In this document: positions 1-12,996 of the stretch, in pieces
How positions within the stretch are numbered: position 1 is the first letter of the stretch
Layout of the letters: each line of letters opens with the position of its first letter
From: an uncultured bacterium
GTDB lineage: Bacteria > Caldisericota > Caldisericia > B22-G15
Length of the DNA: 12,996 bases
NCBI GenBank assembly: GCA_965612865.1
Contig: CBFDTJ010000042.1
Coordinates: 1 to 12,996 of the forward strand
Reading direction: 5' to 3'
Position numbers and translations under genes: made by a program
The notes under the pieces: model-generated
Seen by the model: only the letters and a program-made list of their open reading frames with translations
What the model was told of the DNA's origin: nothing
Database searches by the model: none

Positions 1-2
1 TT

Positions 3-68
3 CAAGCAGAAGACGGCATACGAGATCATGCCTAGTCTCGTGGGCTCGGAGATGTGTATAAGAGACAG
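3..68 (+). other. Illumina Nextera P7 adapter read-through (sequencing artefact)
   Basis: CAAGCAGAAGACGGCATACGAGAT (P7, 3-26) + 8-nt index CATGCCTA (27-34) + GTCTCGTGGGCTCGG (35-49) + Tn5 mosaic end AGATGTGTATAAGAGACAG (50-68). Confidence 0.99.
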
Positions 69-431
69 ATGAATGACAGCACGGGAAAAATGTCCCAAGC
101 TGTGGAGATAAGATTTGGTGGTAGGAGTACAGGTATGGGCGCATATACGCAATACAGAGTGTTTTCATTAAGGCAGAAGAAGGAACTTAAGCCACATAGG
201 ACAGAGTCCAGCAAAACGGGAAATCACTGGACAGACGTATGGTTTTTGCTTCCTGGGAAATATTTTGTCTCCTGGGAGGATATTAGTAACAGCGGGAAGC
301 ATCGGTGTGGGTATGGTGTTCTTTTTGTGCTTAATGACAGTTATGTAGTTGAGAAGTGGAAAGGGGAGGTACCAGAGTTTGCAAAGGAAGCGCTTTGTAG
401 TTGTATGGCTGAGATAGAGCCAGAGTATTAG
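69..431 (+). CDS. hypothetical protein (5' end uncertain because it abuts the adapter)
   Basis: Track ORF 54..431 minus the adapter-derived MYKRQ. ATG at 69, or M-S-Q at 90, could be the start. Contains S-x-[TS]-G-[NK]-H twice. Confidence 0.75.
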   Translation: MNDSTGKMSQAVEIRFGGRSTGMGAYTQYRVFSLRQKKELKPHRTESSKTGNHWTDVWFLLPGKYFVSWEDISNSGKHRCGYGVLFVLNDSYVVEKWKGEVPEFAKEALCSCMAEIEPEY

Positions 432-443
432 GAGGTGGAGTGA

Positions 444-620
444 ATGAGTGAATTCAGGTGTATTTTTTCTAATAGTAACTTTTTTTGTGCGCTGTGTAGG
501 AATGAAACAATGCCAAACACATGTGAGTGTGTCGGGGACACTCGAGCGAGGAAGTGCTGTCCGTTGTGGCAGATGGTAGAGAGTCTTAGGTTGCTTGTTG
601 GAGTTAAGGAGGTAGAATAA
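444..620 (+). CDS. small Cys-rich hypothetical protein (58 aa)
   Basis: Hand-translated MSEFRCIFSNSNFFCALCRNETMPNTCECVGDTRARKCCPLWQ...KEVE*. GGAGGTGG RBS at 431. TAATG overlap with the next ORF. Confidence 0.75.
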   Translation: MSEFRCIFSNSNFFCALCRNETMPNTCECVGDTRARKCCPLWQMVESLRLLVGVKEVE

Positions 621-799
621 TGAACAGGAGGATGATGAATCTGTTAGTAATAACGGTGCCGTTTGAGGAGATGACGACAGAAGAGTTAGAGCAGTATGAA
701 AGAGATCCAGAGGTGGAAGTGAAGGTTGATGGTGATAGGCAGGTGGTTGTTATAAAGAGGCAGTATGAAGATAATGGGTGGTATAATGGGAAGGATTAA
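620..799 (+). CDS. small hypothetical protein (59 aa)
   Basis: Hand-translated MNRRMMNLLVITVPFEEMTTEELEQYERDPEVEVKVDGDRQVVVIKRQY...GKD*. AAGGAGGT RBS upstream. Fills the gap between its neighbours. Confidence 0.7.
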   Translation: MNRRMMNLLVITVPFEEMTTEELEQYERDPEVEVKVDGDRQVVVIKRQYEDNGWYNGKD

Positions 800-956
800 G
801 CCAGACAAAGTGTGGGATTTAAAGGACGAGTGTTGGGATGAGCCTTGCGATGAGCCTCCTTGCTTTTGTCCTCATGTTCCAGCTTGTAATCCAGAGGTGT
901 GTGATGAATGTCTAGAGGTCGGGGAAGAATATTGTGTTTTAAGGAGGAAAGAGTAG
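786..956 (+). CDS. small Cys-rich acidic hypothetical protein (56 aa, 8 Cys)
   Basis: Track ORF 765..956. Start moved to 786 because it sits in the recurrent GGTGGTATAATG junction motif. Confidence 0.7.
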   Translation: MGRIKPDKVWDLKDECWDEPCDEPPCFCPHVPACNPEVCDECLEVGEEYCVLRRKE

Positions 957-959
957 GAC

Positions 960-1367
960 ATGAAGGTTGAAGTGTTTGAGAAGGTTATGAAGTTGGATGA
1001 TTGCAGAGAGAGGTTGCTCAGGTACTGTCATAATGAACAGTGTAAGAAGTGGATGGAGTGTCCAGAGGAGCATGAGGAATGCAGAGATAGGTTAGGGTTT
1101 AGTACGGCTGTTGTGTGGGTGGTTGCGAATGAGGTTCATAAGTTTATTAATTTTATTGATTTTTATGATCGTCCTGTTTATTTGCAGAAGTATATTGAGG
1201 TTAACAGGTTTTTGGGAGGGTTATTGTATCTGGTAGATATTTTGTTGGAGGCTCTGGAGTATCATAGCGGTTATGAGAGGCTGGTCTATGAATTGAGAGA
1301 GTTGAAGTGTGGTTTGCAGGATGTTAGAAGTGTAATGAAAGATATGGAGAGGTATGTGATAAAATGA
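960..1367 (+). CDS. hypothetical protein
   Basis: 135 aa ORF on the same strand and with the same codon style as its neighbours. ATGA overlap with the next gene. Confidence 0.8.
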   Translation: MKVEVFEKVMKLDDCRERLLRYCHNEQCKKWMECPEEHEECRDRLGFSTAVVWVVANEVHKFINFIDFYDRPVYLQKYIEVNRFLGGLLYLVDILLEALEYHSGYERLVYELRELKCGLQDVRSVMKDMERYVIK

Positions 1368-1819
1368 AAAAGAAACTGTATCTTGGTAAGATGGATGGAA
1401 GCAGGTATGGGTATAAAAGTAAAGTGCATGTTGAGGTGGAAATAGAGATGAAAGAGGATGAGAAGGGAAGGGAGGTTATCAGTTTTGTTGGTGAAGTGAG
1501 GAGTCCGGTTGCAAGGAAGGTTATTGCACGTGGGCAGATACAGGATGAAATAAGGAAGGCAGTTGAGAGAGGAGAGCTTGATGAGATGGCAGAGAAGGTG
1601 GTTGAGTACTGGGACAGGTGGCATCTGAATAATTTGAGGGCTGGGTGTGAGCACCAGGAGAGGAGGATAAGAGAAATGAGGGAAGAGTTTTATGCTAAAA
1701 GTTTGGAAGAGAGGCTGGAGATGATGGGGAAGTGTCCGGAGTGCGGGTATGAGTATGGAAGCTGCTGGATATATGAGCCGTTGAGTGATGAGGTGGTGAG
1801 GTGGTATGAATCCTTATGA
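1364..1819 (+). CDS. hypothetical phage-type protein with a probable metal-binding C-terminus
   Basis: 151 aa. The motifs GQIQD, WDRWHLN, AGCEHQ and CPECGYEYGSCW resemble an uncharacterised phage family (from memory, not searched). Confidence 0.8.
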   Translation: MKKKLYLGKMDGSRYGYKSKVHVEVEIEMKEDEKGREVISFVGEVRSPVARKVIARGQIQDEIRKAVERGELDEMAEKVVEYWDRWHLNNLRAGCEHQERRIREMREEFYAKSLEERLEMMGKCPECGYEYGSCWIYEPLSDEVVRWYESL

Positions 1820-1919
1820 GCAGGAGTACTGTGAGGAATGGGACGAGGAAAATAAGAGATGTTTGAAAGATAATCCAGAAGAATGTTGGTATTATAGAAT
1901 TGGAAAATGCAGGTGGTGA
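1806..1919 (+). CDS. Cys-rich microprotein (37 aa)
   Basis: Hand-translated MNPYEQEYCEEWDEENKRCLKDNPEECWYYRIGKCRW*. GAGGTGGTGAGG RBS just upstream. Its stop codon lies inside the tRNA-like element. Confidence 0.6.
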   Translation: MNPYEQEYCEEWDEENKRCLKDNPEECWYYRIGKCRW

Positions 1920-1955
1920 TGGTTCCTTGGTGAGGTTCGATTCCTCACGCCTGCA
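1909..1955 (+). ncRNA. tRNA-like minihelix element (acceptor stem + T-arm, no D or anticodon arm)
   Basis: GCAGGTG (1909-1915) pairs with CGCCTGC (1948-1954), 6 Watson-Crick + 1 G.U, followed by discriminator-like A1955. T-arm is TGAGG-TTCGATT-CCTCA (1931-1947). Only 15 nt separate the acceptor 5' strand from the T-stem. Confidence 0.65.
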
Positions 1956-1969
1956 TGCCCGTAAGGGCA
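1956..1969 (+). promoter_or_regulatory. GNRA-tetraloop hairpin between the tRNA-like element and the next RBS
   Basis: TGCCC-GTAA-GGGCA, a perfect 5-bp stem, followed immediately by GGAGG (1970-1974) and ATG 1982. Confidence 0.55.
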
Positions 1970-1981
1970 GGAGGTTTGAGA

Positions 1982-2485
1982 ATGGTTGAGGCAAGAAAAA
2001 TAGATGAAGAGAAAGATAAGGCTGTGGTGATTGGAAGAGTGCCTTTTGAAATGGAAGAGGGAATGATGTATAAGGTGGTTGTCAGAGGACTGGGAGAGTA
2101 TGAAGGTGGTTACAAAGTGGATTTCGAGACAGGAGAGTATACAGGGGAAAAGATAAGGAATGTTGGGCTGGTAGTGTGTGATCCAGAAGACAGGGAGACG
2201 GAGTATATAATAAGTGAGGTCAGTTCGAGTGTGGCTGGAAATACGCTGGCAAGGAAGTTTGGAAAGAGAGATGATGATGGTGTGCTATGGCTGGCAGATG
2301 AATGGTTGAATAAAGTAATATGGATAGGATATAAGACAGTGGTACCAGAAGGAAGAGAGAGAGGTTATAAGAGGTACTATGTAACGGATACAGGAGAAGT
2401 GGCTGAGAAGTTCCCAGAGGAGCCAGCAACGGTAGGAGTAGAACAGAGGGAAGCGGTTGCAGAGGAAGATGAGGTGAGGATATGA
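1982..2485 (+). CDS. hypothetical protein, possible ssDNA-binding protein
   Basis: Track ORF 1955..2485 restarted at the ATG after GGAGG. Beta-strand-like body with many aromatics (GYKRYYV) and an acidic tail (EAVAEEDEVRI). Lies near the Sak4-like ATPase. The function is inference only. Confidence 0.55.
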   Translation: MVEARKIDEEKDKAVVIGRVPFEMEEGMMYKVVVRGLGEYEGGYKVDFETGEYTGEKIRNVGLVVCDPEDRETEYIISEVSSSVAGNTLARKFGKRDDDGVLWLADEWLNKVIWIGYKTVVPEGRERGYKRYYVTDTGEVAEKFPEEPATVGVEQREAVAEEDEVRI

Positions 2486-2742
2486 GGAATCTGGAAGAGG
2501 CGGCTGATATATACAGGAGGTTTGTGGAGAGAGTTAGGGAGACAGGTAAGTGTGGTCTGTTGATTAGTTTTGATATTAAGCCGGAGCATGCAGAGCTTGC
2601 GTTTCCAGGGTTGGCAGTGCTTGCTGAGAAGATTAGGGATAGTGTTGATATAACACCGACGGTTGTGCCGGTTGTTACTGAGGTTGATGATGCAGAGCAT
2701 GTTGAGGTTGTTGTGAGGAGGTTACAGGGGAATGAAGGTTGA
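2482..2742 (+). CDS. hypothetical protein
   Basis: 86 aa ORF, ATGA-coupled, with a GAGGTGAGG RBS. Confidence 0.8.
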   Translation: MRNLEEAADIYRRFVERVRETGKCGLLISFDIKPEHAELAFPGLAVLAEKIRDSVDITPTVVPVVTEVDDAEHVEVVVRRLQGNEG

Positions 2743-3013
2743 GTTTGAAAGAACGGTTGAAAGGGATGGAGTTGTAAGGTACATTATAAGCAGTGATAGT
2801 CTGGATATGCTGGAAAGGGTGCTTAATAGGGTTGATAGGAAGTTTGGTGATAATGTAGCATTGCATACAAGGAAGGATGGTGATTCATGGTGGATAGGGT
2901 ATAGAGAATATGGTTATAGTGCAAATAAGGAGCATGTTGAGAAGTTCGTTGAGCAGATGAGGGAAGCGAAAAAAGAAATAGAAACAAGCGAAAAGCTTGT
3001 TTTTTATATTTAA
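2732..3013 (+). CDS. hypothetical protein
   Basis: 93 aa ORF overlapping the previous gene, with consistent codon style. Confidence 0.8.
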   Translation: MKVEFERTVERDGVVRYIISSDSLDMLERVLNRVDRKFGDNVALHTRKDGDSWWIGYREYGYSANKEHVEKFVEQMREAKKEIETSEKLVFYI

Positions 3014-3019
3014 TTTTTT
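3000..3019 (+). promoter_or_regulatory. A/T-only tract: possible archaeal TATA box and/or oligo-T terminator
   Basis: TTTTTTATATTTAATTTTTT is 20 bp with no G or C and two T6 runs. It spans the stop at 3013, and its TTTATA core is about 25 bp before GTG 3032. Confidence 0.3.
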
Positions 3020-3031
3020 GGAGGTGGTAGA

Positions 3032-3229
3032 GTGGAGAATGAAATAGTAGTTACGTTGCCTGATTTGAGTAGAGTGTGTTTGAAGTTGTGGGGACGAATG
3101 CCTCTGGCGTTGTCTCTGGTTCATAATGATAGGGTTATACTTGAAGGAACTGATGTTGATATTATTGTTGAGAGGTTCATGCGTATGGTCAGAGAAGCAG
3201 TAGAGAAGCTTATGGAGGGTATGGAGTGA
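3032..3229 (+). CDS. small protein with an AbrB/MazE-like N-terminal domain
   Basis: NEIVVTLP...L.L...PL.L...DRVILE fits the swapped-hairpin pattern and aligns with the N-terminus of 4557..4925. GGAGGTGG RBS. Confidence 0.5.
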   Translation: MENEIVVTLPDLSRVCLKLWGRMPLALSLVHNDRVILEGTDVDIIVERFMRMVREAVEKLMEGME

Positions 3230-3894
3230 AAAGGAGTTTGTTTGTTCTGATTGTTGGGGAGACAGGGGTTGGAAAGAGTCATGCTGCGATGAGTTTAGGG
3301 AATAGTGTTATGCTGGATACGACGATAAACGGTGATGCAGAGGTGGCTGCGTGGAAGGTGTATGGTGATGAGTTTGGGGAGAGGTATTACAGGGTCAGTG
3401 AGTATGAGCAGTTGTGTAATGTGATAGAGGAATGTGAGGTACCGGTGGTTTGTATTGATACTGGTGATAGTTTGAGAGATGTGCTGGCAAGAGAGTATAT
3501 AAGGAGAGTTAATGAGGGAAGATCAGAGGATAAGAAGGTGAAGAAGATTTATCCAGTTACAGAGTGGGGAAAGGTTTATGATCTTGGGAGAGAGTTGTTT
3601 TATAGTTATGCCGGAGAAAAGACATTTGTTATAACAGAGGGAATGAAGGATGAGTATGTTGGAGATAAGCCTACAGGAAAGAAGGTGCCTGATGGATTGA
3701 AGATGTTACCAGCGATGGCAGATATAGTTGTTAATGTGAAGATTGTTGGAGGAAAAAGGAAGTTTCAGGTTGTTAAGAACAGGTTTATAGATAAGACAAG
3801 TGAGGAGTGGATAAAGGAGGTTGGTGATCTGAAGGTACTGTTTGATGAGATAGAAAAGGTTACAGGGTTCAAGAAGGAGTGGTTGGTGGTATAA
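3226..3894 (+). CDS. P-loop ATPase, AAA_24/Sak4-like (RecA-fold single-strand annealing protein family)
   Basis: Walker A GETGVGKS near the N-terminus, Walker B VVCIDT, 'EWGKV', 'ADIVV' and RecA-like 'VVKNRF'. The 222 aa size is typical. Confidence 0.8.
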   Translation: MKRSLFVLIVGETGVGKSHAAMSLGNSVMLDTTINGDAEVAAWKVYGDEFGERYYRVSEYEQLCNVIEECEVPVVCIDTGDSLRDVLAREYIRRVNEGRSEDKKVKKIYPVTEWGKVYDLGRELFYSYAGEKTFVITEGMKDEYVGDKPTGKKVPDGLKMLPAMADIVVNVKIVGGKRKFQVVKNRFIDKTSEEWIKEVGDLKVLFDEIEKVTGFKKEWLVV

Positions 3895-4175
3895 TGATGC
3901 ATAGATGTTTGTTGTGTGGGAAGCTTTTTGGATCATATCAGTTGATAGATGAAGTGTGTCAGGAGTGCAGAAGTGAATGTATAAGTAACAAAGATCAGTT
4001 TCTGGATGAGTATGAAGAGCTATGCAGAAGGTATCATCTGTGTGTTGATGCATGTGGGTGCTGTGATAGTCCTTTTATTTCGATTGTGCTTGATGATGAT
4101 ATTAGTGCTCATATACGTCATTTGAGAGGTGGTATTGATGAACAAAGAAATAAAGATAAAAGTGGAGAAAATTAA
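3894..4175 (+). CDS. Zn-finger/Cys-rich hypothetical protein
   Basis: CLLC...CQEC plus CGCC. Start moved to the TAATG overlap at 3894. Confidence 0.75.
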   Translation: MMHRCLLCGKLFGSYQLIDEVCQECRSECISNKDQFLDEYEELCRRYHLCVDACGCCDSPFISIVLDDDISAHIRHLRGGIDEQRNKDKSGEN

Positions 4176-4557
4176 TGAGCATATAGCAGTGCTGGAGGAT
4201 AAAGAAGCGATAAGGGAGCTGGTTGCTGGAGAAGGGAGGTATATAGCGGTGATAAGTGCTGGAGATATTGAATTGTGTGCAGAGATGGAAAAAGTGCGTC
4301 TTATGCCTTTTGTTGTTTCTCTGAGACCTAGGGAAACGAAGAAGATTACTGATTATTTGATGGTGGAGGATGAGTTTGATGTGTGTTATGAGGTTGTTAA
4401 AGCTACAAGAGCAAAGGCTATAGATGCAGTAGCCAGTGGTGCTTATTATGCTTATCGGGTGGATGTTGAAGGAGAACCGTTGCTTCTGTATGGATGGGGA
4501 TATTATCCGCCAGAGATGTACCTTGTGGCGCCGTATATGTTGAAGGAGGTGGTATAA
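4138..4557 (+). CDS. hypothetical protein
   Basis: Track ORF 4129..4557. ATG 4138 follows GAGGTGG. The C-terminal PLLL...YLVAPY is weakly sliding-clamp-like. Confidence 0.75.
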   Translation: MNKEIKIKVEKINEHIAVLEDKEAIRELVAGEGRYIAVISAGDIELCAEMEKVRLMPFVVSLRPRETKKITDYLMVEDEFDVCYEVVKATRAKAIDAVASGAYYAYRVDVEGEPLLLYGWGYYPPEMYLVAPYMLKEVV

Positions 4558-4941
4558 TGGAAAGAAGTGATAAGACAAGAAACAGTATTATGATCAGAAT
4601 ACCTGGTTTGGATGAAGTGTGTTTAGAGTTGTGGAAACAATCGCCTATTACATTATCACAATCTGGCGATGGAACAGTGATTATAGAAGAGATGAACAGT
4701 AGACTGAGAAAAGTTCAGGATCTATGTAATGTAAGATTACCAGAATGTGATGATGGTGATAGTAAGTCGATAGGTAGGTATTATCAGTGTTTAGCACTGC
4801 GGTATATACGTTCAGTGTGCATTGATATAGAGAGAGGAAATTTTTATGAAGCAGAGAATGGTGCTAATGATTTGTTACGATGTCTTCAGATGGCACAGCG
4901 TAAGTTAGAAAAATTGTTTCTTTAAGGAGGTGGTATAATGG
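4543..4941 (+). repeat. 18-bp exact direct repeat AAGGAGGTGGTATAATGG flanking one gene
   Basis: Copies at 4543-4560 and 4924-4941, 381 bp apart. The 12-bp core GGTGGTATAATG also occurs at 777-788 and 3885-3896. Confidence 0.9.
4557..4925 (+). CDS. protein with an AbrB/MazE-like N-terminal domain and a helical C-terminus
   Basis: Track ORF 4494..4925 restarted at TAATG 4557. NSIMIRIP...LEL...PITL...DGTVIIE resembles the AbrB/MazE pattern. Confidence 0.55.
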   Translation: MERSDKTRNSIMIRIPGLDEVCLELWKQSPITLSQSGDGTVIIEEMNSRLRKVQDLCNVRLPECDDGDSKSIGRYYQCLALRYIRSVCIDIERGNFYEAENGANDLLRCLQMAQRKLEKLFL

Positions 4942-5093
4942 CAGATATACAGAAAATTATTAGTGATGTGCGGTATTATGCTGATGAGATAGATCGGTAC
5001 CTTGTTGATGTGCGCTGGTATCTTGAGAAGCTGAGTAAGCGGATTGATAGGCTGGAAGATATGTTGAAAGAAGAGGATGAGGAGGTGGTATAG
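4938..5093 (+). CDS. small coiled-coil protein (51 aa)
   Basis: Hand-translated MADIQKIISDVRYYADEIDRYLVDVRWYLEKLSKRIDRLEDMLKEEDEEVV*. Heptad pattern and strong RBS. Confidence 0.75.
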   Translation: MADIQKIISDVRYYADEIDRYLVDVRWYLEKLSKRIDRLEDMLKEEDEEVV

Positions 5094-5243
5094 ATGTGGA
5101 AAAAGGAAAGGGAGAATAAAATAAGGGTGCTTATTGAGATGGATGAGGAGACAGAGGAGAAGGTGAGAGAGATTAAGGAGAGGTTTGCGTATACCTCTAA
5201 TAAGATTGTAGAGGAGGTGGTTAAGAAATGCCTGAGAGAATAA
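5094..5243 (+). CDS. ribbon-helix-helix (CopG/Arc-like) DNA-binding protein (49 aa)
   Basis: Hand-translated MWKKERENKIRVLIEMDEETEEKVREIKERFAYTSNKIVEEVVKKCLRE*: an alternating beta strand followed by two helices. Confidence 0.65.
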   Translation: MWKKERENKIRVLIEMDEETEEKVREIKERFAYTSNKIVEEVVKKCLRE

Positions 5244-5383
5244 AGAGAATAGGTGGGTATGTTGACAGGGGTGTGTATGAGAGAATGAAGAATAAGATAA
5301 AGGGAGAAGGGAAGATTGTCAGGTTGGTGCTTAAGCGGAAGCTTGAGGAATGGGTAGATGAGCAGCTTGCTGAGGTGGAGTAA
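5228..5383 (+). CDS. ribbon-helix-helix-like protein (51 aa)
   Basis: Hand-translated MPERIKRIGGYVDRGVYERMKNKIKGEGKIVRLVLKRKLEEWVDEQLAEVE*: strand, VD..VY helix, G turn, second helix. GGAGGTGG RBS. Confidence 0.6.
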   Translation: MPERIKRIGGYVDRGVYERMKNKIKGEGKIVRLVLKRKLEEWVDEQLAEVE

Positions 5384-5385
5384 AT

Positions 5386-6867
5386 TTGAATTACGAGTTC
5401 AGGTTTGACAGGTACAGGAAGTATCAGAAGGAGACGATAGAGAAGATAATTAAGGCTTTTGATGAGGTTGACTGTGTGATGTATTCGGCGCCACCTGGTG
5501 CAGGGAAGTCAGCTATAAATATGGCGGTTGCAAGTGTGTTTAGCAGTTCGTTCTATGTTCTTGGAGTAAAAGCATTGCAGGACCAGGTGAAGAAGTGGTT
5601 TCCAGAGGCTGGTGATATAAGAGGAAGAAGTAATTATATGTGTCCAGAGGAACCGGGAAGAACATGTGAGGATGCACTATGTACAAGAGAAAGAAAATAT
5701 AAGTGCAGGTCAGTGTGTCCGTATAAGGAAGCTAAGATGAATGCAGAGGCGTCAAAGGTGTGTCTTACGAATATATGGTATTACTATCTGGAGGGTGGGA
5801 GGTTTTTTGAGGATAGGGAATTACTGATTATAGATGAGGCTCATAATTTGCCAGAGCAGCTTGTTGATTTTGGTAGGGTTACTATAAGTCCAAGAACTGT
5901 TTTTGGGTTGTGGTATGATCTGAAGGACAGTAAAGATGTTGATTATATGATTGAGAGAATTGGAACAGAGATACTTTTTTATGAGAGTAAGGAGTGGTTG
6001 AGTGATGAAGATGCAAGGAAGGTAAGGATAATGAGAAATGTGCTGTTCAGGTTGAAGAATGTTGTGAGGGATGAGTTTGTTGAGGGAAGGTATAAGAATG
6101 CAAGAGTTTTTGTGCCGCTGTATTCTAAGTATCCAGCGAGGAGAGTATTTGATAGAGCTGAGAAAGTATTAATGTGTTCTGCAACGTTAAATCCGGATCT
6201 GATGGTTAGAGAGCTTGGATTGAGAGAATATTTTGGAAGAGGTAATACGATGTATTTCAGTGTGCCTTCGATATTTGACCCAAGGAGGAGACCATTATTC
6301 CTAGTACCTGTGTGTGAGTTTACGAAAGAAAAGCAGACGGAAGAGAATGTTGTAAAGATGAGGGAGATGATAAGGTTGATACTGGAAAAACATAAGGATG
6401 AGAGAGGTATAATATTTGTACCTGGATACAGGTATATGGAGATGCTGGACGGTATAAGTGATAGGTTGGTTTTTCATGGTAGAGAAGATAGAGGAGAGGT
6501 ACTGGATGAATGGATAAATAATGGTGGAGGAAATAAGGTACTGGTTGGTGTGAAGATGGAAGAAGGACTGGATCTTAAAGATGATCTCGCAAGATTTAGT
6601 ATAATAATGAAGGCTCCTTATCCTGATGTTACTGATATAAGGGTTAAGGAGAGGTTGAGAAGGAAGCACTGGAATTGGTATTTTTTGTTAACACAACAGG
6701 TTTTGTGTCAGGCTTATGGAAGGATAGTTAGAAGTGAGGATGATTATGGAACTGTATATGTACTTGATAAAGGAGCTGTTAAGATGTTGAAAAGAAAAGG
6801 AGTTCCAAAATGGATAAGAGAGGCTATGATTGAAGAAAAACAGAAGAGGCTGGAGGAGTTTGTATGA
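5386..6867 (+). CDS. SF2 DNA helicase, DinG/Rad3/XPD family with Fe-S cluster
   Basis: Q motif RKYQ, Walker A APPGAGKS, GRSNYMC...C...C...C...CPY Cys cluster, IIDEAHN, SATL, EGLDL, QAYGRIVRSEDDYG, LDK. TTG start after GAGGTGGAG. Confidence 0.93.
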   Translation: MNYEFRFDRYRKYQKETIEKIIKAFDEVDCVMYSAPPGAGKSAINMAVASVFSSSFYVLGVKALQDQVKKWFPEAGDIRGRSNYMCPEEPGRTCEDALCTRERKYKCRSVCPYKEAKMNAEASKVCLTNIWYYYLEGGRFFEDRELLIIDEAHNLPEQLVDFGRVTISPRTVFGLWYDLKDSKDVDYMIERIGTEILFYESKEWLSDEDARKVRIMRNVLFRLKNVVRDEFVEGRYKNARVFVPLYSKYPARRVFDRAEKVLMCSATLNPDLMVRELGLREYFGRGNTMYFSVPSIFDPRRRPLFLVPVCEFTKEKQTEENVVKMREMIRLILEKHKDERGIIFVPGYRYMEMLDGISDRLVFHGREDRGEVLDEWINNGGGNKVLVGVKMEEGLDLKDDLARFSIIMKAPYPDVTDIRVKERLRRKHWNWYFLLTQQVLCQAYGRIVRSEDDYGTVYVLDKGAVKMLKRKGVPKWIREAMIEEKQKRLEEFV

Positions 6868-7139
6868 TATATGAAGAGATGGCAAGAGAGTTTGTTAAAA
6901 AGAATGGTCTGGATATAGGAGATGTTGGTTTACAGCTGTTGTGTACTGTTGAAGAGGTTGGGGAAGTTGCGAAAGCAGTGCTTGAAGGAGGAAATCTGGA
7001 AAAAGAAATTGCAGATGCGTTGTTTACGTTGTTTGTGCTTGCAGAGCTTGTTGGAATGGATGTTCAGAAAGTGTATTTTGATGTTGGAATGGAGAACCTT
7101 GGGAAGTCAGGAAAAACAGAAGGAGGAAAAGTTAAATGA
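6864..7139 (+). CDS. MazG-like nucleotide pyrophosphohydrolase (single domain)
   Basis: The acidic metal-binding pattern EEVGEVAKAV...EKEIAD of all-alpha NTP pyrophosphatases. 91 aa. Confidence 0.88.
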   Translation: MIYEEMAREFVKKNGLDIGDVGLQLLCTVEEVGEVAKAVLEGGNLEKEIADALFTLFVLAELVGMDVQKVYFDVGMENLGKSGKTEGGKVK

Positions 7140-7693
7140 TTGACTGGTTATATGAAAAGACTGGAGTGATGAAAAGTTATGGAAGAGGAGATAGGGAGTA
7201 TAATGTTACAGATCTTTTTATCTGCAGGAAAAAAAAGATGTTCAGAGATGCTGGGTATAAGCAGGTTATTACGGTTGATAATGCACTTAGAGGAAGAGTA
7301 ATCGGTCAGCTTGTGCATAAAGGTATGAGTGTACTGCTTGAAGAGGATGGATGGGATACAGGAATGAGGCTGGAAAAGAAAGTTGGAGATTATCTTATTA
7401 TTGGTAAGCCTGATGCTGTTAAGGATGATGTTGTACTTGAAATAAAGTACCAGAGGTATTTTAAGGAGGTTGGTAATGTTCATATATTACAGACAGGTGT
7501 TTATTTGAACATGCTTGGACTGAAGAGAGGGATAATATTATATGTTGCTCCAAATGCTTTTGAAGAAGTGTACATAGACAGAGAGGTGTCTGATGATGAT
7601 ATTTTATGGTTTATTGAACATCCTGTTAGTCCCTTTAGTAAGTGGGAGTGCGAATATTGTGGTTACAGGGTGTATTGTGATACGCCACTGTAG
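7136..7693 (+). CDS. standalone Cas4-like PD-(D/E)xK exonuclease
   Basis: N-terminal Cys (VTDLFICRKK), G..VH, GKPD, LEIK, Q..VY and C-terminal CEYC..RVYC give the 1+3 Cys Fe-S arrangement of Cas4/AddB. Confidence 0.88.
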   Translation: MIDWLYEKTGVMKSYGRGDREYNVTDLFICRKKKMFRDAGYKQVITVDNALRGRVIGQLVHKGMSVLLEEDGWDTGMRLEKKVGDYLIIGKPDAVKDDVVLEIKYQRYFKEVGNVHILQTGVYLNMLGLKRGIILYVAPNAFEEVYIDREVSDDDILWFIEHPVSPFSKWECEYCGYRVYCDTPL

Positions 7694-7755
7694 CTTAATG
7701 GCAGAGCAGCGGATTTGTAATCCGCCGGTTGAGGGTTCAAGTCCCTCCAGTGGCT
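7684..7755 (+). tRNA. tRNA-Thr (anticodon UGU), intronless, CCA not encoded
   Basis: Acceptor GCCACTG/CAGTGGC, D-arm GCTT-AATGGCA-GAGC, anticodon arm GCGGA-TTTGTAA-TCCGC (TGT at 7716-7718), T-arm GAGGG-TTCAAGT-CCCTC. Discriminator U, as in archaeal tRNA-Thr. Confidence 0.97.
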
Positions 7756-7770
7756 TTAGGAGGTGATGAA

Positions 7771-7989
7771 ATGAAATTTAAACTAATGCCGTATGAACAG
7801 TGGTATCAGGTTTTTGGAAAAATAAAGGAACAGATTGAACAGCTGGTAAAAGAATTGCTTTCAGAGGTCTCTGGAGGAGCAGTAGTTTTAGTAGCGTATG
7901 ACAATGATAAGGACAGAATAGTGATTTATTTGAATGGAGAAGAAGTGGCTGTTATTGAAGATAAAGAAAAGAAGGAGGTAATAGAATGA
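7771..7989 (+). CDS. hypothetical protein
   Basis: Track ORF 7729..7989 restarted at ATG 7771 after AGGAGGTGA, because the upstream extension is tRNA sequence. Confidence 0.8.
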   Translation: MKFKLMPYEQWYQVFGKIKEQIEQLVKELLSEVSGGAVVLVAYDNDKDRIVIYLNGEEVAVIEDKEKKEVIE

Positions 7990-8195
7990 CAGAATTCAAG
8001 GATGTTGTGGGAAAGAAAGTGCTGATAAAAGAGTCATGCTCTTCCTTCGATATTGATCTGACAGAAGTGGAAGTAATAGAACTGTCTCCAAATGGTAAAT
8101 ACGTGAAACTCAAAGTGTATACGGATGGACATACCTTTTACGACTGGAGAGCTATTGATAGGTGGAAGATCGTTGATGTGCTGGGGGGTGTTTAG
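7986..8195 (+). CDS. small beta-rich hypothetical protein
   Basis: 69 aa, ATGA-coupled. The pattern VGKKVLI...EVEVIELSPNGKYVKL is SH3/Sm-barrel-like. Confidence 0.75.
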   Translation: MTEFKDVVGKKVLIKESCSSFDIDLTEVEVIELSPNGKYVKLKVYTDGHTFYDWRAIDRWKIVDVLGGV

Positions 8196-8552
8196 ATGAC
8201 CTTCGAAGATTTCTGTCCTGTCTGTAAAGACAACACGATGGAAAAAACACAGGAAGGAAAATACATATGCAGAAAGTGTGGTCTCGGTCGAATAGGAAAT
8301 CCAGACAGGGATCTGGCAGTGATATACGACCGACCGCTTCCGGAGAGTGCATTGGGATTCGACGGAAAATCAGATTACATCGAAGTGCCTCCAAAGAATC
8401 TGACTGATTTAATCAGGTCACTGCCACAGGATCAGTGGTATTCAATTATATGCGACAGTGACGGAGATTTTCTCATCACAAACGAAAAGAACAGGAGTGT
8501 ACTCCCTGATCTTTTCTGTGAAATGAAAAGGAGGAAAGAGAATGACTGTTAA
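8196..8552 (+). CDS. Zn-ribbon-containing hypothetical protein
   Basis: CPVC...YICRKCG at the N-terminus, then SALGFDGKSDYIEV. Confidence 0.75.
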   Translation: MTFEDFCPVCKDNTMEKTQEGKYICRKCGLGRIGNPDRDLAVIYDRPLPESALGFDGKSDYIEVPPKNLTDLIRSLPQDQWYSIICDSDGDFLITNEKNRSVLPDLFCEMKRRKENDC

Positions 8553-8646
8553 GATCTCTCTAAACAAAATAAAACCCAAAAAACCTGTTAATGACTTGTC
8601 AGACGAACAGATAGCAAGACAGTGGGAGGTTTGTAGAGATGTTTGA
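8542..8646 (+). CDS. microprotein (34 aa)
   Basis: Hand-translated MTVKISLNKIKPKKPVNDLSDEQIARQWEVCRDV*. AGGAGG RBS. Fills the gap between neighbours. Confidence 0.5.
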   Translation: MTVKISLNKIKPKKPVNDLSDEQIARQWEVCRDV

Positions 8647-8794
8647 TGGAGTCGTTGAAGTCGTTGAGTATGAAGAAATAACGCTGTTCAAGGAAAAGTT
8701 CAAAGAGATGGTTGAATATTTCTACAAAAACGGCTGGATAACCGAGAAAGAGTATGCGGAGTTAATAGATGCCTTAAAAGGGATTGATGAATGA
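8639..8794 (+). CDS. small protein with a SHOCT-like motif (51 aa)
   Basis: Hand-translated MFDGVVEVVEYEEITLFKEKFKEMVEYFYKNGWITEKEYAELIDALKGIDE*. G-x-I-T-E-x-E-Y motif, GGAGGT RBS, ATGA overlap with the next gene. Confidence 0.65.
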   Translation: MFDGVVEVVEYEEITLFKEKFKEMVEYFYKNGWITEKEYAELIDALKGIDE

Positions 8795-9087
8795 TGAAAG
8801 TCGTATACACAGCATATTCGAGCAAGAATTTTCGATTGCGTGCGAGAATAACAAGATATGTATCTAATCAGGGAGCAGTTCCGATCAATCCATTTTTGAA
8901 CTTTGATTATTTTTTGATGGACACTATAGACGAAGAGACGCAAAAGAAGTTGAATCTCGAACTGATAAGAAGAGTTGACGAAGTTTGGGTCTTTGGTGAA
9001 ATATCAGACGGCGTGAAAGAAGAGATAGACTTCGCGCATTCTATTCAGAAGCCCGTGAGGTATGTAAATTTGGAGGTGGTTGGATGA
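8791..9087 (+). CDS. nucleoside 2-deoxyribosyltransferase-fold protein (DUF4406-like)
   Basis: VVYTAY...GAVPINP...LIRRVDEVWVFG..S.GV..EI.FA....KPV matches the NDT/Rcl-like flavodoxin-fold pattern. Confidence 0.75.
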   Translation: MMKVVYTAYSSKNFRLRARITRYVSNQGAVPINPFLNFDYFLMDTIDEETQKKLNLELIRRVDEVWVFGEISDGVKEEIDFAHSIQKPVRYVNLEVVG

Positions 9088-9422
9088 ATAATAGAAAGAG
9101 AGGGTACTACGTATTCAATGCCGATGAGTATGAAGAAGGAATTGCAGTAGTCGCGAGAACTGCTCGAGAAGCAAAAATAGTTGCATTCAATTATGCTTTT
9201 GATATAGTCGGAGATGATTGGCTGAATCTGCGGTGTAAGTGGATTAGAGACGCGAATGTTGAAAACCTACCATTTGGTGTTGTAGAAGAGCCTGAAGCAG
9301 GGTTGAGAGCAGGAATCTATGCTGCAATAGAAGGAGTTTGTGAAATCTGTAGTGAAGAGAAGATTGTAACATACCACAACAAGAAAATAATATGTTATGA
9401 TTGCTTAGAGGTGGTTGGATGA
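9084..9422 (+). CDS. hypothetical protein with a C-terminal Zn finger
   Basis: 112 aa with CEIC...ICYDC. ATGA-coupled at both ends. Confidence 0.8.
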   Translation: MNNRKRGYYVFNADEYEEGIAVVARTAREAKIVAFNYAFDIVGDDWLNLRCKWIRDANVENLPFGVVEEPEAGLRAGIYAAIEGVCEICSEEKIVTYHNKKIICYDCLEVVG

Positions 9423-9556
9423 GCAAGATCGATCTTTCGGATACCTGGCTCAGGTATTGCAAAGACTGCAAAAGACTGACTTGGCACAAAGATACGGATC
9501 CATGTGGATCTGGGGTGGTTGGAACGTGTACTGTATGTGGTCGTCCGAATCGATAA
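9419..9556 (+). CDS. Zn-ribbon microprotein (45 aa)
   Basis: Hand-translated MSKIDLSDTWLRYCKDCKRLTWHKDTDPCGSGVVGTCTVCGRPNR*, with two CxxC motifs. Confidence 0.75.
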   Translation: MSKIDLSDTWLRYCKDCKRLTWHKDTDPCGSGVVGTCTVCGRPNR

Positions 9557-9568
9557 GGAGGTGATTGG

Positions 9569-9742
9569 ATGAATGAATGGGATGAAAATTCTGAGACTGA
9601 AGAATGGTATGATGAAGATACACCATCCTGCTTTGGTGATTATGTTCCTAGATCAGAGGAGTGCGAATTCCGTTGTGAATGGCAGGAGGAATGTATGGAG
9701 ATGAGTTATCCACCGGGGACGTTTGAGGAGGAAGAAGAATGA
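9569..9742 (+). CDS. highly acidic Cys-containing microprotein (57 aa)
   Basis: Hand-translated MNEWDENSETEEWYDEDTPSCFGDYVPRSEECEFRCEWQEECMEMSYPPGTFEEEEE*. GGAGGTGA RBS and ATGA overlap with the next gene. Confidence 0.75.
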   Translation: MNEWDENSETEEWYDEDTPSCFGDYVPRSEECEFRCEWQEECMEMSYPPGTFEEEEE

Positions 9743-9972
9743 CTAAAATTCGAGTTCTAAATCCAAACTACGATCTCAGTCAAGAAAGTGATCTTGAGCT
9801 CGTTGAGATGATGAAAGAACTGTGTGAGACATACGTAATGTGCAGGCATGAAATATCAACTGCTACATGCGACGTGTGGGCGTCTATTGTTCGTGTGGCG
9901 GAAGAGATTGTGAGAAGAGGAAATGTTACAGAGTCGCTTTTTAGTTTGTTTGATGTGGAGGTGGAGAAATGA
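9739..9972 (+). CDS. hypothetical protein
   Basis: 77 aa ORF, ATGA-coupled at both ends. Confidence 0.75.
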   Translation: MTKIRVLNPNYDLSQESDLELVEMMKELCETYVMCRHEISTATCDVWASIVRVAEEIVRRGNVTESLFSLFDVEVEK

Positions 9973-10436
9973 AAAATGAAATAAAACAAATCCTCTTCGA
10001 ACTCCGTGACAAGGTAGATAAATGCATCCCAGCGATAGTCAGGAGTATAAAGGACATAGAAGACAGAATGTATGAGGTTGAAAAAGAAAATCGTTTGTAT
10101 ATAGAAGGTGAGCTGATGTTTGAGTTTAGTACAGAGAAGAAACAGGTTAATGGTGAGCTTATGGATTTTGATGAGGCTTTTGTTAGTGAAGTTGTTGACT
10201 TTCAGTTTATTCTGGCAGTAACTCTGATGAGACATCATCCTACGGACTTAAAGATCAGGATGGAGAAGGGATGGATAAAGGTGTTTGAGAAAGCTTTTAT
10301 GTTACTGGACTTTAATGATTGCCTGCACATGGAAGAAGAAAAGCACCATGAAGAAATTATCAGGGTTATGAGAGAGAGGTTAAATGAGATAGATCTGGAT
10401 GAGATGGCCGCGGAGATAGAGAGAAAAATAAAATGA
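9969..10436 (+). CDS. hypothetical protein
   Basis: 155 aa helical-looking ORF with a GGAGGTGG RBS. Confidence 0.8.
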   Translation: MKNEIKQILFELRDKVDKCIPAIVRSIKDIEDRMYEVEKENRLYIEGELMFEFSTEKKQVNGELMDFDEAFVSEVVDFQFILAVTLMRHHPTDLKIRMEKGWIKVFEKAFMLLDFNDCLHMEEEKHHEEIIRVMRERLNEIDLDEMAAEIERKIK

Positions 10437-10465
10437 GTCTGGAAATAAGGGCAGGGTGGTATTAA

Positions 10466-10798
10466 ATGAAAGAAGAAGAATGTATAGTTTGTGGACATAA
10501 GCTTTGTGATCATATAGACGAAGGAAATGGTTGGAGGTGTCATAGTTTAGGAGTTGATACTAGGCAGTGTGAATGTTTTTTGAGAAAGCATCGTGATCTG
10601 TTTGGGGAAGTCAGCTTAGATTATTATTCTGTTCAGCGGAGGGTAGAGGAAGCAGAAAAGGAAATAGAAAGACTTGAGAAGATGCTTGAAAAAGAAATGA
10701 AAGAACGTTGGCAGCAGATAATAGAAATGCTTTTTGGAAAAATTAAAAAGGAGGTGAAAAATGAAAAAGAAGCCGATTGTGAAGACAGTATGGTGTGA
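10466..10798 (+). CDS. Cys/His metal-binding protein with a coiled-coil tail
   Basis: CIVCGH..CDH....RCH....CEC followed by an E/K-rich heptad region. Confidence 0.75.
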   Translation: MKEEECIVCGHKLCDHIDEGNGWRCHSLGVDTRQCECFLRKHRDLFGEVSLDYYSVQRRVEEAEKEIERLEKMLEKEMKERWQQIIEMLFGKIKKEVKNEKEADCEDSMV

Positions 10799-10895
10799 TA
10801 AGCGTAATGAGTATGTTTTTCTTGGTGTGTGCAGAGAGTGTCCTAACTGTGAAGGGATAGACCTTGGAAGGATGTTTGTATGGTGTGATGCATGA
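10761..10895 (+). CDS. Cys-rich microprotein (44 aa)
   Basis: Hand-translated MKKKPIVKTVWCDKRNEYVFLGVCRECPNCEGIDLGRMFVWCDA*. AAGGAGGTGA RBS and ATGA overlap with the methyltransferase. Confidence 0.7.
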   Translation: MKKKPIVKTVWCDKRNEYVFLGVCRECPNCEGIDLGRMFVWCDA

Positions 10896-11713
10896 AACTC
10901 AGGTATAAGCTTATTTTTGGAGATTGTGAAGAGGTAATGGAAAGTATGGAAAAGGTGGATCTTGTTGTTACAAGTCCGCCTTACTATACTATGAGGGGAC
11001 ATGTTAAGTACAGAACGTATGCAGAGTATTTAAGAAAGATGGAAAGGTGTTTCAGGAGGATATATGAAGTGCTAAAGTATGGTAGGGTTTTTGCATTGAA
11101 TGTTCCTTATGTTTACAGTGATGAAGATACAAGGTATTTTGTTGGTTTTGATCTTTACAAAATTGCAGAAAAGATGTTCAGGTTGCAGGAATGTATAGTA
11201 TGGGTAAAGGATGCAGGAGCGTTCAGAGGTAGTGGTAGTCGTGGTAGGTTTAGTACTTTTGTTCAGTTTCCTTATGCGTTTTATTATTTTCCTAATTACC
11301 AGTGGGAGTTTATATTTGTTTTTACAAAGGGAAAGATGAGAAAGGGAGAGATAGGGAAAGGAGAGGTTGGTATTGATGTTAGTGAGTTTAACGGAGATGT
11401 GTGGAGGTTAAAAACAGCGTCGCAGGAGTATAGAGAAACTGATCATCCTGCTATGTTTCCTTCGCAGTTACCAAGGAATATAATATCGTTTTACAGTTAT
11501 GAAGGTGATGTAGTACTGGATCCTTTTCTTGGTAGTGGTACAACTATGGCTGTTGCTAAAGAGCTTGGTAGAAGCTGCATTGGTATAGAGATAGAGGAGA
11601 AGTATGAGGATGTTATAAAAAGAAAAGTTGGGTGGAATCAACAGATGTTAGGCTATGAGGTGGAGTATGAGATTAGAAGAGTTAAAGAGAGAGAAAAGAA
11701 AGATTGTCAGTAG
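10892..11713 (+). CDS. DNA methyltransferase, N6_N4_Mtase beta class (probably N4-cytosine)
   Basis: GDC..., catalytic DLVVTSPPY before SAM-binding VLDPFLGSGTT, plus HPAMFP and IGIEI. SPPY is typical of N4-C enzymes. Confidence 0.93.
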   Translation: MKLRYKLIFGDCEEVMESMEKVDLVVTSPPYYTMRGHVKYRTYAEYLRKMERCFRRIYEVLKYGRVFALNVPYVYSDEDTRYFVGFDLYKIAEKMFRLQECIVWVKDAGAFRGSGSRGRFSTFVQFPYAFYYFPNYQWEFIFVFTKGKMRKGEIGKGEVGIDVSEFNGDVWRLKTASQEYRETDHPAMFPSQLPRNIISFYSYEGDVVLDPFLGSGTTMAVAKELGRSCIGIEIEEKYEDVIKRKVGWNQQMLGYEVEYEIRRVKEREKKDCQ

Positions 11714-12494
11714 TATTGGTGGTCTTGTAAGAAGTTTGAATTATCATTACAGAAAGGTAAAAGTAGCACCTGAGAAGAGAAAGAAGTATCATATTGATAA
11801 GATAAGAGAGCTTGAGTATAAGATTCTTAAGAGGTATGAAGAGCTTGAGGAGATTAACAGGAAGATAAAAGAAGCTGAAAGGAAAGAATTTATTGATATT
11901 GATGAGAATACAGGATATTTTATTTATTACGATCGTGATAACGAAATGTACTATCTTGTCAGACCTGAAAAAGCAGGAGCAACGCAGGAGATTTTACCTG
12001 GATTCTATCAGTGTGTTGAAATTACCGTGAATTATGCTTTTGAGACAGGGTGGGAGGATGATCCAAAAAGAGATCTTGGTGCAGAGATAAAGGTGAGTGT
12101 TAGAGTTGAAAGGATGGGAAGAGAGAAGGTACATAAGGTTGCAGATCTTATTCATGAGGCGTTTAAGGAGTTTGTTGCTCATTACTTTGGATATGATTTT
12201 GGAAAACCGAATCTGGCTAAAGGATATGTTATTGCAAGAGGTATAATGACAAAAATAATGCCTGAATCGGTTAAAGAGAAGATGGAAATTGAAACACCGG
12301 AGCCTATAAAGGTTGGTGTTTATTTCAGAGTAACAAATGAACCAGCAACACTTATTCCGGAGGAAAGGTATGTTAGAGGTGTTGTTTTCAGAGAATGGCA
12401 CAGAGGAAGAGGAGAATACAGAAAAGACTTTGATTTGCCATTTAATCTGAAAGAATGGTTTGATTATATTGGTGCGTGGGAGGAACTGATGTGA
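11667..12494 (+). CDS. hypothetical protein with a basic coiled-coil N-terminus
   Basis: Track ORF 11655..12494. ATG 11667 follows GAGGTGGAG. No family recognised. Confidence 0.75.
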   Translation: MRLEELKREKRKIVSSIGGLVRSLNYHYRKVKVAPEKRKKYHIDKIRELEYKILKRYEELEEINRKIKEAERKEFIDIDENTGYFIYYDRDNEMYYLVRPEKAGATQEILPGFYQCVEITVNYAFETGWEDDPKRDLGAEIKVSVRVERMGREKVHKVADLIHEAFKEFVAHYFGYDFGKPNLAKGYVIARGIMTKIMPESVKEKMEIETPEPIKVGVYFRVTNEPATLIPEERYVRGVVFREWHRGRGEYRKDFDLPFNLKEWFDYIGAWEELM

Positions 12495-12996
12495 GATGTG
12501 AAGAGTGTAATGGAAATCTTGTTTACGATAGTGTACGTGGTGAGACCTATTGTGAGGACTGTGGACTTGTTGTAGAGGAAAATATAATTGATACAAGAAG
12601 AGAGTGGAGAGTTTTCAGTACAAGAGATTTCAATGAGAGAAGTAGAACAGGACCTGCAGAAACGTATATGTTACATGATAAGGGACTTGGAAGTGAAATT
12701 TTTTTAAAAGGAAAGCTTAGGACGTTGAATAAGAGAATTAAGTTTGTTAGGGGCTCTGACAGGAGCAAAGTTACTGCAATTAATCTTGCTGTTAAGGTAT
12801 GCGGAGATTTACATTTACCAAGGTATGCTGTTGAAGATGTATGTTTTTATCTGAATAAAGTTTACAGTGCTGGTAGAACAAAAGGAAGACCGCTGGAAAT
12901 GGTTGTTGCAGGTACGGTGTACTTTGTTTGTAGAATGAGAAGAATAGCAAAGAGTGCTACTGAAATTGCTCGTGTTACTGGTGTAAAAAAGAAGAA
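12491..12996 (+). CDS. tfb: archaeal transcription initiation factor IIB (TFB) homolog, 3'-truncated by the window
   Basis: GTG start overlapping the upstream TGA, open to the window end. MRCEECNGNLVYDSVRGETYCEDCGLVVEENIID (Zn ribbon), EWRVF (B-reader), RSRTGP...HDKGL, then the cyclin fold LHLP...KGRPLEMVVAGTVYFVCR...EIA. Confidence 0.93.
   Translation, partial: MRCEECNGNLVYDSVRGETYCEDCGLVVEENIIDTRREWRVFSTRDFNERSRTGPAETYMLHDKGLGSEIFLKGKLRTLNKRIKFVRGSDRSKVTAINLAVKVCGDLHLPRYAVEDVCFYLNKVYSAGRTKGRPLEMVVAGTVYFVCRMRRIAKSATEIARVTGVKKK

Follow-up and report, generated by a model that had tools for sequence, protein, structure and literature searches.

Archaeal viruses rely on the RNA polymerase of their hosts, which they use with promoters composed of a TATA box and a BRE (PMC5569661), and the timing of late-gene expression in these viruses is poorly known. 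Genes for the initiation factor TFB have been published for several groups of archaeal viruses: they are present in JinchiV1, the Baiyanviruses, PBV300 and some rudiviruses (PMC13700489), they occur in WyrdV1 and in Asgard elements, where recruitment of the host machinery has been proposed (10.1101/2021.07.29.453957), and they are listed for Italian rudiviruses (10.1101/2020.01.16.907410). The known viral TFBs include those of the rudiviruses ARV2, ARV3, MRV1 and SSRV1, of YNP1 and YNP2, and of a Halorubrum tailed virus, and they sit inside archaeal virus genomes, as the TFB described here probably does; by tblastn, 15 GenBank entries for archaeal viruses contain a TFB, and these are 20-27% identical to the present protein. 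The likeness to the TFBs of PBV300 and of the Baiyan, Jinchi and Wyrd viruses is one of published description and not of sequence; TFBs are also encoded by the elements 10H_0 and 7H_42. The gene type is already known, and the TFB considered here is a further viral member of it; the rarity implied by the original prediction, which had been made for this locus from its letters, does not hold. A functional test of any viral TFB was not found in the open-access literature searched.

The cellular TFBs, represented here by the P. woesei core (1AIS/1D3U) and P. furiosus TFB1 (families PF08271 and PF00382), have the same full-length domain order as the viral protein and share with it the zinc ribbon, the B-reader clusters, the HDKG motif and a glutamine and an arginine of the helix-turn-helix (HTH), but their B-linker is 11-17 residues longer. 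Two clusters of the B-reader are needed for stimulation by the TFB of M. jannaschii (PMC3025549), deletions in the B-linker impair promoter opening (PMC13502027), and the second cyclin fold binds the BRE (PMC7289017, PMC4581349). P. furiosus TFB2, which has a divergent reader and linker, still works, with poorer opening (PMC13502027), and Sulfolobus TFB3 cannot replace the canonical TFB and acts beside it.

The window, by which we mean the whole stretch of 12,996 nucleotides that was analysed (contig C42), carries on its plus strand a frame of 168 codons that runs from GTG 12491 to the contig end without a stop. The zinc ribbon, B-reader, HDKGL and first cyclin repeat of a TFB that had been read in this frame are recovered by Pfam (TFIIB zinc ribbon PF08271, E = 1.3e-13; TFIIB repeat, E = 3e-7; both pass the cut-off) and by alignment. 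The frame had also been described as absent from the ORF track, which is true of the default listing but is no property of the gene, because the frame is truncated at the contig end and has no stop in the window; a listing with open ends includes it, from the in-frame GTG 12476. The last 77 nt of the window (12920..12996, plus strand) match exactly the end of a second contig, C67, read on its minus strand, and mark an assembly break inside the TFB gene, of which 168 of 280 codons lie at 12491..12996 (plus strand) and the rest on the minus strand of C67 with the stop at C67 7098. C67 supplies the second cyclin repeat with the HTH, and the joined frame is uninterrupted over 280 amino acids, so that the disruption just past the window that the original prediction had allowed for did not occur. 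The joined protein is letter for letter that of the database gene call P0002, which has the same start codon and lies on a 3,860-bp JGI contig that may come from the same sample as this assembly. The TFB gene is intact and has the full domain set.

The gene is embedded in an element of about 20 kb on C42 and C67, and its assignment to this element stands, since there are viral genes on both sides. Upstream of it, about 34 short genes, mostly led by Shine-Dalgarno sequences or overlapping, form a packed one-strand block (54..12494, plus strand) which we infer to be the early region. This block encodes, all on the plus strand, a Sak4-like AAA ATPase (3226-3894), a Rad3/DinG-like helicase (5386-6867), a MazG-like protein (6864-7139), a Cas4-like nuclease (7136-7693) and an N6/N4 DNA methyltransferase (10892-11713), and ends in a 279-aa ORF of no known family (11655..12494). 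Downstream, the C67 genes comprise small orphans, another methyltransferase and a zinc-finger protein, with a capsid candidate at the end of the contig. Of the 17 ORFs scanned on C67 beyond the TFB, none exceeds the Pfam cut-off as a housekeeping protein; the housekeeping neighbours that the original prediction had named as the sign of a provirus boundary are replaced by virus-like genes, which make a provirus boundary very unlikely. No polymerase gene was found among the genes of the element.

Translational coupling of the TFB gene to the 279-aa ORF is visible in the window, where the GTG overlaps the TGA of that ORF (GTGA) and follows a Shine-Dalgarno-like GGAGG (12479..12483, plus strand; 7 nt before GTG 12491), but it is not a fixed feature, for a sister strain has different DNA upstream of 12497, which gives an ATG start that fits P0012. 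A second strain is contained in a sequencing run (X1) that is the possible source of the assembly, and 11 of the 12 TFB-gene variants listed for it are synonymous against an expected synonymous fraction of 0.21-0.34 (p = 4e-7 to 5e-5 for 11/12 among the variants listed); judged by these variants, the gene is under purifying selection. Three sediment metagenomes of other studies contain parts of the element, no RNA data set being among the holders listed, and in one of them (X3) a 471-bp piece spanning 12429-12899 shows zero differences. Early genes appear from contig comparisons to differ between strains, several of the joints having short sides and low depth: contigs of other runs omit 2953-4921, 8624-9979 and 10688-11841, including most of the methyltransferase region.

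The assembly in which the element is found is bacterial, with six sigma-70 matches, no TBP and no TFB other than the viral one at 87.6% completeness, and its marker contamination is 0.69%; the archaeal-type virus on C42 and C67 is therefore probably mis-binned with the bacterium. Archaeal bins are the source of the named members of the helicase clusters, and the element is probably a virus of archaea from marine sediment. That the gene might instead be a cellular TFB at the edge of a provirus, a decaying copy, or a factor active in the bacterium of the assembly is suggested by its place in a cellular assembly and by its third-position G content (0.17), which is host-like and lies outside the range of the viral genes (0.26-0.41). 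The G-rich codon style that had been said to unite the gene with its viral neighbours is accordingly only half confirmed: the gene is C-poor, and its G/C skew of 0.45 is viral (0.48-0.68 in six viral genes; 0.18 +/- 0.11 in 722 host ORFs), but its third positions are not. A decaying pseudogene is largely excluded by the intact 280-aa frame and purifying selection, and function in the bacterial assembly host by the sigma-70 matches, the lack of TBP and the result that none of 92 other genomes of the assembly's phylum matches the TFB. Against a cellular origin also stand the lack of housekeeping matches on C67, the failure of C42 and C67 to join any further contig at the word sizes tried, and the lack of any spacer-length match to the element; a search of the assembly brought up no other part of the virus. 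Taken as a whole, a cellular or dead gene is a highly improbable reading. The archaeal host was not found in samples of 301, 133, 301 and 401 genomes from four archaeal phyla.

The divergence of the protein from cellular TFBs, as originally predicted, is evident in several measures. Its identity to cellular TFBs is about 35% at best among the matches listed, its score against the canonical cellular model NCBIfam PRK00423 is 134.7 bits, below the 384-bit cut-off, and it retains 37 of 72 reference columns, defined as the columns whose conservation extends over all four groups in a set of 80 cellular TFBs (the best 80 of 595, chosen by the HDKGL pattern and score to the query, without crenarchaeal, Bathyarchaeia, methanogen or DPANN TFBs). 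Two word-seeded database searches returned no relatives at 31%-99% identity, and a single-protein scan of IMG/VR returned no relative of this TFB. Trees had been proposed as a pointer to the host, an expectation that failed. In the first, built by a quick method from 55 of 112 rows (near-duplicates and most halophile and Poseidoniales rows were dropped), and in the second, built from 36 rows with X residues removed, the protein sits on a long end branch (3.37 and 2.03, respectively) outside every starred group, and a long unplaced branch permits no inference about the host. The tight grouping with a cellular TFB that had been named as contrary evidence appears in neither tree; in the quick tree the protein also does not group with the rudivirus and YNP TFBs, but all of those branches are long.

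Other TFBs on mobile elements fall into this comparison at different distances. Five known viral TFBs that were tested retain 26-40 of the 72 columns, a similar divergence, and keep the same two HTH residues. The TFBs of ARV3, MRV1, YNP1 and YNP2 (L026, L027, L030 and L031) have lost zinc cysteines and retained the HTH glutamine and arginine; the present TFB keeps all four cysteines. The TFBs of 16 marine viral contigs in IMG/VR (L010-L025, 8-144 kb), which group with Poseidoniales TFB, and that of the Thermococcus plasmid pTBMP1 are likewise carried by mobile elements, but they are near-cellular, with 65 and 70 of the 72 columns and full linkers, and nest with their hosts, which the present TFB does not.

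Conservation in the viral protein declines from the polymerase-facing half towards the core. The zinc ribbon (12491..12610, plus strand), with C3, C6, C21 and C24, keeps 9 of 9 conserved columns and starts without the N-terminal extension of cellular TFBs. The B-reader (EWR...R-T-G; 12593..12667, plus strand) keeps 5 of 8, and its E38-W39-R40 and R52-G54 are both of the clusters that are essential in M. jannaschii TFB (PMC3025549); this normal B-reader distinguishes the protein from divergent cellular paralogues such as P. furiosus TFB2. The following segment (12674..12736, plus strand; limits after PMC13502027) contains HDKG, the B-linker strand LGSEIF and a shortened B-linker helix, KLRTLNKR, which keep 4/4, 2/3 and 2/4 columns, followed by a short pre-core stretch that keeps 0/1; the conservation of HDKG is partly circular, because the reference TFBs were picked on the HDKGL pattern. 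The predicted motif changes from RLRKWQ to KLRTLN and from ERNL to DRSK are as the alignment places them. The first cyclin repeat (12758..12996, plus strand), the only one scored in the Pfam scans, keeps 10 of 23 columns, and the second, on C67 with its putative BRE-binding HTH, 5 of 20. Collinear alignments nevertheless extend to residue 265-270 (human TFIIB, E = 8.5e-20; P. woesei TFB core, E = 5.6e-13). A single-sequence AlphaFold model of P0002 (pLDDT 45) was unusable.

The segment after HDKGL is shorter than in cellular euryarchaeal TFBs, as had been noticed: from HDKGL to cyclin helix 1 there are 23 residues, as compared to 40 in 86 of the 112 aligned rows; Thermococcales have 34, and ARV3 and MRV1 have 20. 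The shortfall of 17 residues relative to most cellular TFBs, or 11 relative to Thermococcales, corresponds to the linker loop and the first half of the B-linker helix (P. furiosus limits, PMC13502027); the strand is present and the helix is at about half length, so that the viral TFB is a natural B-linker deletion. A short linker is not rare, contrary to what the original prediction implied, for it occurs in the rudivirus TFBs and in cellular Asgard paralogues: the Promethearchaeota paralogues L137, L139 and L142 have visibly short linkers, with no tree support for kinship. The Promethearchaeota genome concerned (G093) has 13 TFB-like matches, several with an altered B-reader and short linker, at loci that include L130, L134, L137, L139, L142 and L145.

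This pattern, in which the polymerase-facing half is the best conserved part and the core the least, together with the loss of half of the B-linker helix, is what one would expect if the protein were an inhibitor whose ribbon and reader occupy the polymerase, or whose short B-linker blocks opening, and which would turn off host, or early viral, transcription. There are precedents in RIP, a viral global inhibitor of RNA polymerase, and in TFS4, a host paralogue turned inhibitor. Such a role is nonetheless doubtful, because the virus, for which no polymerase gene was found on the element, needs the host polymerase for its own TATA promoters, because the whole core, including the two signature residues of the HTH, has been kept and selection acts on the first repeat, and because TFB2 functions with a divergent linker (PMC13502027) and short linkers are found in cellular paralogues.

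The HTH is conserved at two points and altered around them. Q247 and R262 occupy, unchanged, the positions of Q268 and R283 of Pyrococcus TFB. Littlefield et al. (1999) reportedly found that Q268, V280 and R283 of Pyrococcus TFB touch BRE bases, and we take Q247 and R262 of the viral TFB to correspond to the base-contact residues Q268 and R283. Between and after them the recognition helix has been rewritten, with SGTSIRKIR in place of TEVTVRNRY, and departs from cellular TFB at six positions, among them E279G, V280T and T281S (Pyrococcus numbering). The divergence of the cyclin repeats and this rewriting of the helix mean that binding to TBP and to DNA may be altered or lost.

Downstream of the TFB, TTTATATA boxes occur three times in 7.1 kb (C67 minus strand, at 6291, 1923 and 1428), as compared to a shuffle mean of 0.45, a significant excess in that 2 of 200 shuffles reach three. 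There are none in the 12.4 kb upstream, where the contig lacks the beginning of the early block and 0.58 are expected, so that the absence is not significant. Sigma-70 sites on C67 are at chance (19 vs 19.5). The eight bases ahead of the three boxes are GCGAAATT, GCGCAAAT and TCGTAATC, each of which has G at -6 together with A at -3 (base-composition p about 8e-4), which is the preferred TFB site (PMC11065993). T-runs precede two of the three boxes, and an ATG lies 29, 31 and 31 nt from the box starts; since every box also has nearer ATGs, leaderless starts are a presumption. The third box stands at the head of an operon whose last gene is the capsid candidate, and a TATA box with G-6/A-3 stands before the same capsid operon in three of five related loci (two viruses: L112/L114 and L116), on contigs of 1.5-2.9 kb; the other two loci have too little upstream DNA. 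These appear to be candidate late promoters of archaeal type with an ordinary BRE.

The original prediction held that the TFB, like a phage sigma factor, redirects the host polymerase to the element's late promoters through a BRE that is not that of the host. Candidate late promoters are indeed present downstream, but a non-host BRE upstream of the structural genes is not what they carry: all three boxes have the canonical archaeal G-6/A-3 (per PMC11065993, which may not describe the BRE of the true host). A switch in specificity would require that the rewritten helix prefer a viral BRE with CG at -7/-6 and AA at -4/-3, so that the polymerase would be drawn from host to viral late promoters. 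The six helix changes would fit such a preference, as would the occurrence of CG.AA in all three promoters and in one relative (L112/L114) and the position of the TFB gene, which follows the early block and precedes the first TATA promoter. In the other 109 contigs the strict pattern turns up a single time, a rarity which is not an independent test because the pattern was derived from the same three sites. On the other side, the common bases fit an ordinary archaeal BRE (PMC11065993), which weakens this most exciting of the readings; the L116 promoter lacks the C at -7, and Q247 and R262 are unchanged. We consider a changed specificity unlikely, and we are equally hesitant about its fuller form, in which the TFB would be selective for leaderless CG.AA-TTTATATA promoters and would drive an early-to-late switch in an undescribed tailless family with a tandem SPV1-like capsid. 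Were it true, the switch would be the archaeal analogue of the late sigma factors of phages, and the factor would be available for a test together with three of its target promoters.

The reading that we prefer, and hold to be rather probable though by no means secure, is that this viral TFB works, and acts at the late promoters with near-normal specificity. It would be expressed from close to the end of the early polycistronic block, its well-kept ribbon and B-reader would bind the host RNA polymerase, and with host TBP it would initiate at the downstream, presumably late, promoters via their ordinary BRE core, supplementing or replacing host TFB during infection without requiring any change of promoter code. 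With its B-linker helix reduced to half, the protein would be expected to open promoters less well, as does P. furiosus TFB2, and this might be offset by host TFE or by AT-rich starts. The three canonical promoters are not proof of the action of the viral TFB, because host TFB alone could serve them. The protein is nonetheless a convenient test object, being full-length, under selection and intact in its zinc ligands, and having three candidate target promoters.

The virus that carries this TFB is undescribed and probably a tailless icosahedral virus of archaea, and it is set apart from the known TFB-carrying viruses by a tandem jelly-roll capsid candidate. The N-terminal 120 aa of this candidate are encoded at C67 1-362 (minus strand), and its relatives P0013-P0060 form a family of two-repeat proteins of about 400-470 aa with single-repeat relatives of about 200 aa. 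A model of P0013 (pLDDT 91, 26 sequences) shows two helix-plus-jelly-roll domains whose halves are 35% identical, and of 48,161 chains the one that it matches best is the capsid protein of Sulfolobus polyhedral virus 1 (SPV1; Z 8.4, rmsd 3.7 over 142 residues), the next match having Z 6.3; Foldseek on the capsid model gave low TM-scores only. Pfam gave no match in the eight family members scanned, and the family had no match in IMG/VR, in GenBank phages or in genome samples from four archaeal phyla (301, 133, 301 and 401 genomes), searched with no positive control. The modelled fold provides moderate evidence that the carrier is a tailless icosahedral virus. Single jelly-roll archaeal viruses have been described (PMC8812541, PMC9894754, PMC12934983), and the two-domain candidate may, to judge from the model, be an independent and recent duplication of a single jelly-roll capsid. 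The tandem SPV1-like form was not found in the main texts searched; supplements may describe the family. The capsid of this virus may be more unusual than its TFB.

Several minor features of the element were also observed. Window positions 1-70 are assembled Illumina/Nextera adapter, as at many other contig ends, and ORFs at 1-214 were rejected as artefacts of this adapter sequence. A tRNA-Thr(UGU) without an encoded CCA (7684..7755, plus strand) overlaps the end of the Cas4-like gene; it shares 85% identity over 59 nt with the tRNA-Thr of the assembly itself and is therefore not an attachment-site copy. An intergenic tRNA-like minihelix at 1909-1955, which has a 7-bp acceptor-like stem and a T-arm with a TTCGATT loop and lacks both the D and the anticodon arm, receives no ARAGORN or Rfam call; its region (1905-1965) has a folding z of -1.9, and it is possibly a tRNA remnant or a processing signal. 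On C67, a 247-nt gap after a 169-aa ORF (5332-5614; 14821-15067 in the joined sequence) contains a pair of near-repeats (AAGG.TCAAAAAAATTTGAAAT) together with a hairpin resembling a terminator and an AT-rich tract, and is a possible origin or control region.
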